Numbered from the stretch's first letter, positions 41,921 to 45,211 are shown. The stretch is DNA of 64,000 nt from Eubacteriales bacterium (GCA_045532975.1 JAZSGX010000057.1:3223-67222); one strand, 5' to 3'. The notes: generated from the sequence alone by a model not told the origin. Translations and numbers: made by a program.

Positions 41921-44900
41921 TTATTCGCTAATTCTATAGTCGCCGTTACCGCAAACAACTGCACTTCTCAACCCAGAAGCAAGACTCTGATTAATTGAAG
42001 CGTAATCGACAGACTCTTGTACTGTATGGCCTTCTATCAAATAAGAATAAAAATCTTCGGTCCATTCGTTTGCATCGTCACAGTTTATACTGTCGGAAAA
42101 GCCTACTGTAACATCTGCTCCTTGGTTTGAGACAGCAGCAGGAAGATTTCTACCTGTTGTACCATCATATGCAGTTTCGCACCCGACGAATAACGCCATA
42201 TTCAATCCATCAAACAAATCGGTGGTGGTAATGCTAACACTTCCTAATGTCATATTGTCCCATGGATGACTATATAAAGCGACCATCTCTGTTTCCTCTT
42301 CGTCGTTTAATATTATTCCCGTTGAAGCAGCGATGCTTGTATCTTCCCAAACAATCAAGTGGCCGTGGCTTCTACTTGTGAAAACACTAGAGTTTTTTAA
42401 ATCGGAAAGACAAACACTTGAATTAATGGCACCTGTTTTTAATGTAATGTTGTTGAAACCAACATTGTGCAAATCCCTTTTTACATCCGTTAAACAACTT
42501 GAATGGTCGTGACCAGAATTTGATATACCGTAGAAAATTACTTCAAATTCATCAAGTGGCTCAAGCACCCACTCATCTTTATAATCATCATCGTTGTTGT
42601 ATACACTCTGTTCAACGTTTAATCCGCTATCTATCCACAGGAATTGATCTCCTGCACTCATACACCAATCTGAGCTATATGATTCTCCAGATTTGGGTCT
42701 TATTATATAGGCTCCTGAAGATGATTTAGTTATTTTCCATTTTTTTCTACTTAAGTCTGAATCTGGCTCTTGAATTAAAGATTCTTCATCAACATTTAAA
42801 CAGCTCGATTGTACACAAATAGCCATATCGCTTTTTTCGGATATTATTTTGTAATATCCGTCTTGTATATGATCAAGCTTCCACTGCTGATATTCCTCAC
42901 CATCAAAATCCCATAATTCTAATAAGCTTCCATTCGTATTATAATTTGGTTCATCGTCATCGTCTATTTGAACATATGTTTCAGTATCTTTGTTTTTAAT
43001 AAAATATGAGCCTTCGTCTATTGCAAGTGAGGAAGTAAAATCATATGCTAATATATTGTAGTTGCTATCTTCTCCGTTATAAATCAATACATTTACCTTA
43101 AAATCTCCGCTTTGATGAAGCATTACATTGGTTTTTCCAGAAACTACGTCTGTAGAATACGTGGCGTAATATGAATATTCGTCATCAATCGTTATCATAT
43201 GAGTATTACAATCTATCATGGTTGACCATACGACAGCAGAAAATTGGCACAAATCTCCTACATAAAATTCAGACGGAAAATAAATAGTAGAGCCCCATTG
43301 TTCTACCCCTGTATACTGCTCAAACGTCCATCTCATACTATCAGTTATGGCAGATGACATTGGAGCAGTGGTTAATTCGTAGTTTACATCGGTATCTGCC
43401 ACTATCATATTCGGACTGTTATAAGGAGCAATTATGTATCCGCTGTTTCGGAGAGTTATACTGAATTTATCCTCGTCAGGTACATCTTCATCTTTGCTCG
43501 CTATTTCTTTGGTAATCACTTGCCCGTTTGAAATTGTCAATGTAAGATTGTTGTTAGTCATCAATCTAATGATATACAATCCATTTGAGCCTGATATCTT
43601 AAATAATCCCGAGCGGTCAAAGCTATTCACAGGAGATGTTGTGCCGATTATATGCTGAATATTGCTACCGGATATTGCGCTACCGTTTTCGACGGTAATA
43701 TATGATTGGCAATCTATATTCTTGATTGCATACACACCATCGGGAATTTGCTGAGAATATACCACTCTGAGATACGGAGAGTAGCCGGATTCAGAGGATT
43801 TTATTATCACAGAGTCTTGTGTCCCGGAGCTATTCTTTATAGCAACACCGTATGCGAATGCTCCGCTATAATACCAATTACTAAAAATTGTTGTAATAGG
43901 AAAGCCGACTGTTTGTAAAGCCGGTGTTGCTGAGGACACTGCTTGCTCTGAAATCTTTGTAGCAGAAATGCTTGGTCTATTGCTGTATTTTGTATTTGTA
44001 TCTATCATACCGACAACTTCGTATATTCCAATATTAAAATCAGCGTCTGCTCCATAATAGGAGATATATAACTCTGCCGAATCAATTCTTGAAATATTCA
44101 TAGGCAAACTTGGAATATATGGCTTAATCAAGGCTGTTTTTGTATCGCTTGCATACAAAGCTTCGCTTGTAGCATAACTAACATTTGGGTTTTGTGAATC
44201 AATATAGGTATCAACCCATATTGTGCCTTGAATTGTCGGGTCAATATTTACAGGAAATTCTCTGTTTTGATCATTTATCCACTCTTCATTGGCAATAACC
44301 TTTAACGTATAGCCACCCTTTGATGCTACCAAATTATAGAAAACGTCATAAGAGTATTCACCGTTACCGTCATACATATACGGCGCAGGGATTGTGTACT
44401 TTATATTTTCAGTTTTTACATCCCTTAGTAAAATGTTGCCGCCTTGGTCAAGTTCCGCAGTTAAGCCTGTTAAACTTAACTTGAATGCGTATTCGTAGCT
44501 ATCCGTTTTTGCTTTAACAATAATGTTTTCTTTGATATTATTTCCGTCTAAGATATACTCAATATCCGTATTCTCTCTAATATCATTATACACTATTGAT
44601 GACCGATTGTCAATTTGAATAGCGCTTTCAACAGAATTGAAAACTAAGCTTTGTGACCTTTTTTGAGCATTTTTTATAACAGGTGTCTGTGTGCTTGACT
44701 CTTGAAGTGTCACCTTACCTGAGCTAATAGGGGTCATAGAAACTGAGTATCCGTTTTCATTTAAGCTAAATAATTCGCTACCGTACTTAAAGGCGCTTGC
44801 AAAGCTGACTCTTGAATCCTCGGTATAATATCCTTGCTTATCGTTAACTCTTTTCAAGGTTAAGCTATTATCAATGTCCTGCCATACACCGTTTATATCT

Positions 44901-45211
44901 TTTCTGTGTACTGCACTCGCAAAAGAAATCGCCTCGTACGAGCCATTTGATAATCTAAAATGCTTTACGTTTTCTTCACGCAAGGAAGGTATTTCTTCCA
45001 CGTTACCTATTATTTCATCGCTTACAAATTCTAATGTCTTTGTCGTATATTCTTCTGCTGTGCTAATATCGTTATTAACGGCTTGCTCGTCTGTTGCGTC
45101 GGCTTCCGGTTCCGATGTTTCAAATGCTGACGGAGTGGATGCGGTGACAGGAAAGCACACCAAAAGCATCACTACCGACAAGCACAGAGACAATATTTTC
45201 TTTTTCTTCAT
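41921..45211 (-). CDS. Large secreted protein: N-terminal wall-associated/DNRLRE-like region, two ricin-type beta-trefoil lectin-like regions, C-terminal His/Cys (caspase/CHAT-like) domain
   Basis: Signal peptide MKKKKILSLCLSVVMLLVCFPVTAS and an AAAGGAGAA RBS. N-terminal motifs are KHFRLSNGSYEAISFASAVHRKDINGVWQDIDNSL and FPVNIDPT. QxW-like motifs (EYQQWKL, RKKWKI, KDEWVL) mark the lectin regions. The C-terminal domain has VFTSRSHGH and, about 65 aa later, MALFVGCETAYDG. Confidence 0.8.
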   Translation of the reverse strand: MKKKKILSLCLSVVMLLVCFPVTASTPSAFETSEPEADATDEQAVNNDISTAEEYTTKTLEFVSDEIIGNVEEIPSLREENVKHFRLSNGSYEAISFASAVHRKDINGVWQDIDNSLTLKRVNDKQGYYTEDSRVSFASAFKYGSELFSLNENGYSVSMTPISSGKVTLQESSTQTPVIKNAQKRSQSLVFNSVESAIQIDNRSSIVYNDIRENTDIEYILDGNNIKENIIVKAKTDSYEYAFKLSLTGLTAELDQGGNILLRDVKTENIKYTIPAPYMYDGNGEYSYDVFYNLVASKGGYTLKVIANEEWINDQNREFPVNIDPTIQGTIWVDTYIDSQNPNVSYATSEALYASDTKTALIKPYIPSLPMNISRIDSAELYISYYGADADFNIGIYEVVGMIDTNTKYSNRPSISATKISEQAVSSATPALQTVGFPITTIFSNWYYSGAFAYGVAIKNSSGTQDSVIIKSSESGYSPYLRVVYSQQIPDGVYAIKNIDCQSYITVENGSAISGSNIQHIIGTTSPVNSFDRSGLFKISGSNGLYIIRLMTNNNLTLTISNGQVITKEIASKDEDVPDEDKFSITLRNSGYIIAPYNSPNMIVADTDVNYELTTAPMSSAITDSMRWTFEQYTGVEQWGSTIYFPSEFYVGDLCQFSAVVWSTMIDCNTHMITIDDEYSYYATYSTDVVSGKTNVMLHQSGDFKVNVLIYNGEDSNYNILAYDFTSSLAIDEGSYFIKNKDTETYVQIDDDDEPNYNTNGSLLELWDFDGEEYQQWKLDHIQDGYYKIISEKSDMAICVQSSCLNVDEESLIQEPDSDLSRKKWKITKSSSGAYIIRPKSGESYSSDWCMSAGDQFLWIDSGLNVEQSVYNNDDDYKDEWVLEPLDEFEVIFYGISNSGHDHSSCLTDVKRDLHNVGFNNITLKTGAINSSVCLSDLKNSSVFTSRSHGHLIVWEDTSIAASTGIILNDEEETEMVALYSHPWDNMTLGSVSITTTDLFDGLNMALFVGCETAYDGTTGRNLPAAVSNQGADVTVGFSDSINCDDANEWTEDFYSYLIEGHTVQESVDYASINQSLASGLRSAVVCGNGDYRISE

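Follow-up and report, generated by a model that had tools for sequence, protein, structure and literature searches.

Is the large exported protein encoded at positions 41921–45211 (minus strand) of a 64,000-nucleotide stretch of Eubacteriales bacterium DNA (GCA_045532975.1, JAZSGX010000057.1:3223-67222) a protease, and if so, where would it act and what would hold it in check? An earlier reading of this stretch, made from the sequence alone and here called the original prediction, described a secreted protein of 1096 residues that combines lectin-like modules with a C-terminal His...Cys domain resembling caspase/CHAT-fold proteases, and took it for a carbohydrate-targeted extracellular protease or toxin-like effector. 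This is still the best reading, with a protease activity that we infer, and it is strengthened by a lipoprotein encoded next to the gene, by the head/tail organisation of the protein family and by the insertion of the gene pair in the genome. We put at roughly 0.6 the probability that the protein is a lectin-docked, exported CHAT-like endopeptidase effector of a polymorphic family, checked at the surface of the producer by a cognate PepSY-type lipoprotein. Coordinates are those of the whole 64,000-nucleotide stretch (the window), and residue numbers are those of the 1096-residue protein.

Results

The C-terminal domain is predicted to have a CHAT-like clan-CD fold

The domain in question occupies residues 878–1096 (41924..42580, minus strand; stop codon at 41921–41923). 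Its AlphaFold2 model, built from an alignment of the 15 homologs returned by a word-indexed search, has a predicted local distance difference test score (pLDDT) of 91.2 and a predicted template modelling score (pTM) of 0.88. A Foldseek search of the PDB with this model gives 35 matches at E ≤ 1e-3, all of them clan-CD peptidases, with query template modelling (TM) scores of 0.44–0.59. The top matches have E-values down to 1.2e-6 (SAVED-CHAT, 8tl0) at a probability of 1.0. Besides 8tl0, the matches include Craspase Csx29/TPR-CHAT, the periplasmic CHAT domain of DdvA, gingipain RgpB and separases, and a metacaspase and caspases rank just above E 1e-3. The gingipain structures 1cvr and 4ief have the joint-highest query TM score (0.57) among the top matches. 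Model and structural matches place the domain in the catalytic clan-CD fold that had been proposed from the sequence, and not in a non-catalytic one.

Sequence searches with the C-terminal domain by itself gave no significant match in Pfam, in NCBIfam, in phmmer against the PDB or with two family profiles against the PDB, and the sole CHAT match in the PDB profile search of the family is 8tl0, at E 0.9. The Pfam CHAT profile, with a curated gathering cutoff of 24 bits, does not match the window domain even at E ≤ 10. In 11 of 13 close relatives the profile finds weak matches (best 2.8e-5), and three distant relatives exceed the cutoff, namely two paralogs in locus L004 (28.0 and 38.1 bits) and P0099 (30.5 bits), in line with the CHAT resemblance first claimed.

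The word-indexed search understated the family: against its 15 matches, an exhaustive profile search retrieves 1,698 clusters (at 50% identity) at E ≤ 1e-3 and 178 at E ≤ 1e-30. The His and Cys of the putative catalytic dyad are conserved among the 15 homologs, and they are near-invariant in 161 representatives at ≤50% identity, over which all conservation was counted. His949 (SRSHG; codon 42365..42367, minus strand) is kept in 151 of 152 representatives, the following Gly950 in 146 of 152, and Cys1011 (FVGCET; codon 42179..42181, minus strand) in 159 of 160. A single representative, P0142, has lost both His and Cys. In the AlphaFold2 model His949 stands two residues past the end of strand E73-77 and Cys1011 two past the end of E135-139. 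The original prediction had expected a domain of about 215 residues with its two motifs some 65 residues apart, at about His948 and Cys1016; the domain is present and both motifs are found, with a spacing of 62 residues that puts His949 in VFTSRSHGH and Cys1011 in ALFVGCETA. On the grounds of the Foldseek fold, the conservation of the dyad and the Pfam CHAT matches of relatives, we file the C-terminal domain as a divergent CHAT-like clan-CD peptidase domain, an assignment made from sequence and a predicted model.

A second conserved unit accompanies the putative dyad

Two further elements of the domain are strongly conserved. An HxH motif, His901-Asp-His903 (42503..42511, minus strand), lies in the loop after the first β-strand, and its two histidines are kept in 138/144 and 139/144 representatives. 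Cys1044 (SIxCxxANxWT; codon 42080..42082, minus strand), which the model places at the start of a helix following a later strand, is conserved in 157/160 and co-varies with the HxH motif. Arg947 and Trp1050 are also near-invariant in the family. Three representatives (P0071, P0116 and P0122) lack Cys1044 and also both HxH histidines, and keep His949 and Cys1011. Because HxH and Cys1044 are lost together while the dyad stays, this pattern marks them as a putative functional unit separate from the dyad. In caspases, Arg179 and Arg341 in the corresponding loops build the S1 pocket. By analogy, the probable role of HxH with Cys1044, and perhaps Arg947, is to shape the S1 pocket or to hold a metal ion beside the active site. 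The segment GHDHSS (window 42497–42514) is also a sub-threshold match to motif I of MJ0936, and its HxH could be a metal ligand pair. The profile match of 'GI..GHDH' to the MJ0936 metallophosphoesterase as such was judged to be due to chance, with an E-value of 0.7 and a different fold.

A disulfide between Cys1011 and Cys1044, which would argue against catalysis, was considered and rejected. Cys1011 persists in the three representatives without Cys1044, and such a disulfide is therefore not obligate.

These patterns bear on whether the domain is an enzyme at all. It might instead be a non-catalytic caspase-fold module, a pseudo-protease or scaffold, whose cysteines form disulfides or serve as metal ligands and whose lipoprotein either is a neighbour without connection to it or serves to anchor it at the surface. 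Several cysteines are conserved in what is a secreted protein (Cys934, Cys1011, Cys1044 and Cys1087), inactive caspase-fold repeats are known (PMC3482391), and the window domain has no Pfam match. We nevertheless hold this explanation to be very improbable. Across very divergent sequences, His-Gly and Cys show 99% conservation in the order expected of a His...Cys dyad; Cys1011 stays where Cys1044 is lost; and the single exception loses His and Cys together. An anchor, moreover, should track the shared head of these proteins, yet the lipoprotein tracks the tail (see below). Judged by sequence and model, the C-terminal domain would be a cysteine endopeptidase acting through His949 and Cys1011.

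The position of the domain is almost as constant as its dyad, since it ends at most 25 residues from the C-terminus in 157 of 161 proteins. Zhang et al. (PMC3482391) assign a C-terminal position to toxin-type and not to processing-type caspase domains, and by their criterion this C-terminal-most placement points to the toxin type. The point matters for a further explanation, that the domain is a self-processing (releasing) peptidase like the cysteine protease domain of MARTX or TcdB, which matures a lectin-bearing N-terminal part that is the real adhesin or lectin. In secreted toxins and surface proteins, clan-CD domains indeed often serve for autoprocessing (PMC3482391), and the CHAT domain of DdvA has been proposed to cleave itself. 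Releasing versions, however, lie upstream of a separate C-terminal toxin, whereas here the domain itself comes last. The minimal members P0007 and P0011 consist of a signal peptide, one ricin trefoil and the CHAT-like domain, which leaves nothing else to release, and processing in cis needs no dedicated, co-varying lipoprotein. We consider self-processing improbable.

A lipoprotein gene follows the CHAT-like gene

Twelve nucleotides downstream of the CHAT-like gene, with its own Shine-Dalgarno site, begins a gene for a 282-residue lipoprotein with the lipobox LLLGC (41060..41908, minus strand). Pfam reports only DUF4901 in this protein, at a borderline 27.3 bits against a cutoff of 27; the Pfam search gives no match to PepSY, nor to Imm36 (DUF600) or Imm57. 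The AlphaFold2 model (pLDDT 87) has a β domain followed by two helix-plus-sheet units. Its best Foldseek match is to the PepSY repeats of YpeB (5boi, YpeB-C; E 2.6e-6, probability 1.0), and it also matches the inhibitory propeptide of autoprocessed vibriolysin (3nqz_A, probability 0.98) and YycI (probability 0.94). The PepSY domains of YpeB have been proposed in recent work to be chaperone-inhibitors of the co-operonic secreted SleB. By analogy with this pair, the lipoprotein may bind the CHAT-like domain directly and inhibit it.

The arrangement recurs. A gene of the lipoprotein family lies directly downstream of 10 out of 10 CHAT-like genes in the loci that were fetched (the window, L001, L002, L003, two genes in L004, L008, L009/L010 and two divergent genes in L010); one of these downstream genes encodes a paralog anchored by a transmembrane helix, not a lipoprotein. 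Pairwise BLAST between the window and L004 lipoproteins is marginal, and their homology is for this reason argued through profiles and transitive links. CHAT-like and lipoprotein sequences can also be paired through contigs of the same size (P0001–P0283, P0002–P0295 and P0225–P0285). The scan of the genome collection used one narrow peptide pattern and returned four loci, and is not to be read as a taxonomic census.

Two of the loci are unusual in their own right. The closest genomic relative (L001, 4897–6654), which is 74% identical in the CHAT-like domain, is an open reading frame of 585 residues with a TTG start and with neither signal peptide nor DNRLRE domain nor trefoil 1. The reading frame may be an internally deleted or decaying copy; its partner lipoprotein is intact. 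In L008 (7098–8712), P0114 (693 residues) joins the head to a CHAT-like domain without a ricin domain; downstream of it lie two paralogous genes of the lipoprotein family in tandem, one of which could be an extra immunity copy.

One head carries alternative tails, and the lipoprotein follows the tail

The N-terminal head (residues 1 to about 487) has 111 homologs, whose BLAST similarity to the window protein stops at about residue 485. BLAST clustering of 28 tails gave 11 groups in addition to the CHAT-like type. They comprise a Rhs/WapA-like class, which is the largest, three HExxH metallopeptidase classes, two papain/C39-like classes, the CHAT-like class and several that are unassigned. A constant N-terminus with alternative, unrelated C-termini is the pattern by which polymorphic toxins are recognised. 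The downstream partner also changes with the tail, in a small sample that sets CHAT-like loci against L005/L006 and L007. In L005/L006 (reprolysin-like tail) and L007 (C39-like tail) a lipoprotein is encoded 13–19 nucleotides downstream, and it aligns to the window's lipoprotein family over the signal peptide only. The type of lipoprotein therefore goes with the tail rather than with the head: loci with reprolysin-like and C39-like tails carry unrelated lipoproteins. This behavior would be expected of a specific inhibitor or immunity protein rather than of a generic anchor.

These same loci (L005, 5001–7926; L006; L007, 5001–7215), which join a window-type head to reprolysin-like (HEFGH) or C39-like ends and encode lipoproteins of 229 and 196 residues, are candidates for further peptidase/lipoprotein-inhibitor pairs.

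Some members of the family appear in truncated form. In L004 a 328-residue ricin-CHAT gene without a signal peptide, together with lipoprotein genes, follows a gene for a 1239-residue protein, and in L009/L010 the P0006 reading frame begins inside the trefoil just past a stop codon. These 5'-truncated ricin-CHAT and lipoprotein arrays resemble, as far as their sequences tell, the orphan cassettes of polymorphic toxin loci. The window itself contains no orphan 5'-truncated cassette. L010 (1–11041) and L009, both human gut metagenome contigs, hold at least five effector-like genes with ricin domains in a tandem array, among them divergent CHAT-like types and a Peptidase_C39_2-like type (1162 residues), and most of the genes in the array precede a gene for a small membrane-tethered protein or lipoprotein (287, 131, 299 and 259 residues).

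Against an effector aimed at other bacteria stands the explanation that the protein is a host- or diet-directed secreted protease. Its lectins would bind mucin, immunoglobulin A or dietary glycoproteins, cleavage would serve nutrition or colonisation, and the lipoprotein would be a chaperone or zymogen-style inhibitor during export. Relatives of known source are metagenome-assembled genomes of gut Clostridia and metagenomes, ricin-type and CBM96 modules typically serve to target glycans, the host-directed clan-CD protease gingipain is among the best structural matches (TM 0.57), and the YpeB–SleB precedent is a chaperone-inhibitor and not an immunity protein. The head, on the other hand, is common to Rhs/WapA-type proteins, which are interbacterial toxins; truncated orphan-like cassette arrays and extra partner paralogs are hallmarks of conflict systems; and lipoproteins specific to the tail fit immunity well. 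We regard host- or diet-directed proteolysis as unlikely, and favour surface proteins of competing bacteria over host glycoproteins as the presumed target of the effector.

Predicted export signal and glycan-binding modules

The reading frame lies exactly where it was first noted, at 41921–45211 on the minus strand, and encodes 1096 residues. A strong Shine-Dalgarno site, AAAGGAG, is found a short distance 5' of its ATG, in the 5' region of the cassette (45212..45507, minus strand), which is within the inserted segment described below. The Sec-type signal peptide that the original prediction reported is likewise there: residues 1–24 (45140..45211, minus strand), read by eye from the translation as MKKKKILSLCLSVVMLLVCFPVTA|S, have a basic n-region, a hydrophobic core and a VxA site, with cleavage predicted after VTA.

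The first part of the reusable head is a β-rich N-terminal domain (residues ~60–333; 44213..45034, minus strand) that is common to the 111 proteins retrieved with the head query and weakly similar to Pfam DUF7948 (E 8e-4, under the cutoff). The head ends with a DNRLRE/CBM96-type domain (residues 334–487; 43751..44212, minus strand). Here the DNRLRE assignment made at first sight agrees with NCBIfam NF033679, which matches residues 334–483 at E 2.2e-13 and 50.6 bits against a cutoff of 34. Relatives of the DNRLRE-bearing head are annotated as PF24517 CBM96, and the connection between DNRLRE and CBM96 is taken from PMC9971899.

The tail begins with lectin-like modules. Two β-trefoils had been proposed, with the motifs EYQQWKL, RKKWKI and KDEWVL spread over both. 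The second trefoil (residues ~723–877; 42581..43045, minus strand) is a solid member of the ricin-type lectins (PF14200/PF00652, CBM13-like), with a RicinB_lectin_2 match of 53 bits against a cutoff of 25.6 (E 6e-14), and all three quoted QxW motifs turn out to be its own subdomain motifs (773–779, 822–827 and 878–883, respectively). The first (residues 488–645; 43277..43750, minus strand) is a degenerate ricin-type trefoil; its motifs are degenerate and it stays under the Pfam cutoff for RicinB_lectin_2 (17 bits, E 0.0095), yet BLASTP aligns it (E 6e-6) with a domain that Pfam does recognise, the first ricin domain of a distant full-length relative in L004. A linker separates the two trefoils (residues 646–722; 43046..43276, minus strand), for which the family scan gave no significant match. 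L004 has a Big_2 domain at this position, and the linker may be equated with it by positional analogy. A trefoil of the second type stands before the CHAT-like domain in most of the family, and the tryptophan of its last motif (DEW) is present in 92 of the 92 representatives that cover this position. Family scans detected no TPR or other helical-repeat scaffold upstream of the CHAT-like domain; the modules there are ricin, DNRLRE and the β-rich N-terminal domain.

The gene pair lies in a lineage-specific insertion

The two genes lie between the convergent trkA-trkH and gap-holB-PSP1 genes, in a trough of GC content. The inserted segment of about 4.7 kb (40793..45505), between convergent trkH and gap, has about 36% GC, against 43.1% in the rest of the window. 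In three related loci (L011, L012 and L013), which encode an identical GAPDH protein, gap and trkH are directly adjacent and the cassette is absent (the empty site is at 8985–9140 of L011). L011 is colinear with the window at 85–87% DNA identity, with BLAST alignment breakpoints at window positions 45506 and 40792. Because the alignment resumes in this way on either side, we conclude that the 4.7-kb segment is a lineage-specific insertion, and the best reading of the two genes is that they are one horizontally acquired unit in the genome of a gut Clostridia member.

Both edges of the insertion carry a copy of the palindromic hairpin AAAAGGCTCGC-N5-GCGAGCCTTTT. The copies (40819–40859 and 45508–45548) are 78% identical over 41 nucleotides, and only these two occur in the 64 kb, against 0.01 expected. 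The bidirectional hairpin proper spans 40819..40846 at the trkH edge and 45508..45536 at the gap edge, where it is the gap terminator. At the related empty site, two different hairpins stand in place of the window's pair. This suggests that the insertion duplicated or brought in a terminator. A GC-rich terminator-like hairpin, CAGGCGGAGC-AAAC-GCTCCGCCTG-TTTT, lies downstream of the lipoprotein gene (40880..40909, minus strand); it was read by eye and is not listed by the hairpin scan. The promoter scan was uninformative, with 28 sites against 21.5 expected.

Two other open reading frames, 45351–46247 (plus strand, 298 residues) and 37463–38191 (minus strand, 242 residues), are antisense to or overlap gap and trkA and are almost certainly not genes.

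Discussion

In the mechanism that we favour, the 1096-residue protein would be exported by Sec and then, as it has no anchor motif, be released. The head (N-terminal domain and DNRLRE/CBM96) and the two ricin-type trefoils would dock it onto glycans, and the C-terminal CHAT-like domain would be the warhead, a cysteine endopeptidase that uses His949 and Cys1011. The lipoprotein would be tethered to the outside of the producer's membrane, where its PepSY-type repeats would bind specifically to the CHAT-like domain, so that this domain stays inactive close to the producing cell. It would in this way be an immunity protein or a chaperone-inhibitor, as proposed for YpeB acting on SleB. Across the family, one head would carry exchangeable peptidase or Rhs tails, each type of tail with its own lipoprotein.

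Several points weigh against this reading. The window's own domain has no Pfam CHAT match, and the geometry of the dyad and the placement of HxH and Cys1044 near the active site are taken from model topology only. The PepSY assignment comes from Foldseek matches of low TM score (0.27–0.39) and from the borderline DUF4901 match. The set of adjacent gene pairs is small (10 genes in about 8 loci), was found by homology and is not independent of phylogeny, and the partners of 3 of the 10 genes (L004 A and B, and the L010 3' gene) appear homologous to the window lipoprotein only transitively or weakly. Many of the short family members may be contig fragments and not orphan cassettes. Finally, the known immunity proteins of Tox-Caspase, Imm36 and Imm57, differ in kind from the lipoprotein, and immunity by a lipoprotein has been described as exceptional (PMC3482391).

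The components belong to known kinds: clan CD/CHAT, ricin, CBM96, PepSY and polymorphic toxins. What is new is the extracellular ricin-CHAT cassette, the dedicated lipoprotein family, the HxH+Cys unit and the size of the unannotated family. The pair resembles a toxin-immunity system of a kind not previously detailed. A wider proposal, which we put forward tentatively and consider doubtful as a whole, is that gut Clostridia harbor an unannotated class of Sec-exported ricin-CHAT cassettes (about 1,700 clusters), each with a dedicated PepSY-repeat lipoprotein. These would be caspase-fold toxins that act from outside on Gram-positive cells, with surface-tethered immunity and with an HxH+Cys specificity element or metal/redox switch new to clan CD; they would be swapped in and out behind a WapA-type head and would travel as small insertions.

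CHAT and caspase-fold proteases have been studied as intracellular executioners activated by a signal, as in separase, Craspase and CBASS/SAVED-CHAT. If the effector reading is true, a widespread, lectin-guided extracellular branch would give the CHAT family a part in conflicts between bacteria or at host surfaces in the gut microbiome, and PepSY domains would gain a concrete role as inhibitors of clan-CD proteases. The gene pair is small and self-contained and is a possible source of new protease specificities together with specific inhibitors. The pattern of head, tail and lipoprotein also provides a rule for finding more effector-immunity pairs in Clostridia.

Comparison with known systems

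The closest structural relatives are the CHAT peptidases (PF12770; 8tl0, Csx29/TPR-CHAT, DdvA and separase), which give the best structural matches and share the His-Gly...Cys order with the window domain. 8tl0 and the window family also have a similar C-terminal 'G-x-x-[IV]-x-D/C-x-x-A...FY..L..G' segment, in a weak alignment. The known CHAT proteases are cytoplasmic and activated by a signal, which may be a cyclic nucleotide, RNA or securin, and DdvA is membrane-tethered and periplasmic. In contrast, the window protein is Sec-exported and free, carries lectins where those proteins have TPR or SAVED, and has a compact peptidase domain of about 215 residues; its family has in addition the conserved HxH+Cys unit and the lipoprotein partner.

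A second parallel is with gingipains R and K of Porphyromonas (MEROPS C25), which are likewise secreted clan-CD cysteine proteases with accessory adhesin or Ig-like domains. Sequence identity is about 9–10%, and the window protein has no match to Pfam Peptidase_C25. Gingipains, unlike the window protein, have an N-terminal prodomain and a C-terminal domain for the type IX secretion system, and come from a Gram-negative organism. For the gene pair as such, the nearest parallel is SleB–YpeB, which is also bicistronic, with an enzyme followed by a PepSY partner, and the lipoprotein finds its best structural match in YpeB, with no detectable sequence homology between the two. SleB, however, is a spore lytic transglycosylase and not a peptidase, and YpeB is anchored by a transmembrane helix and has no lipobox.

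Zhang et al. (2012; PMC3482391) described Tox-Caspase domains as C-terminal toxin domains of Sec-exported polymorphic toxins, with Imm36 and Imm57 as partners. The window protein is like these in having a caspase fold as the C-terminal-most domain of a Sec-exported multidomain protein, a constant N-terminus with exchangeable C-termini and an adjacent specific partner. This likeness is one of description. The differences are that the partner in the window is a PepSY-type lipoprotein, not Imm36 or Imm57, and that the conserved cassette includes a ricin trefoil. Finally, WapA and Rhs toxins have the same type of N-terminal head, as in WapA-CT1 of S. suis (PMC12704120), a Gram-positive polymorphic toxin with a Sec signal, an N-domain and a DNRLRE head, and in the largest class of head relatives the head is followed by Rhs/WapA-like sequence. 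The window protein differs from them in having no Rhs/YD repeats or LysM, in a tail that consists of lectin and peptidase rather than an Rhs-encapsulated nuclease, and in a partner that is extracytoplasmic.

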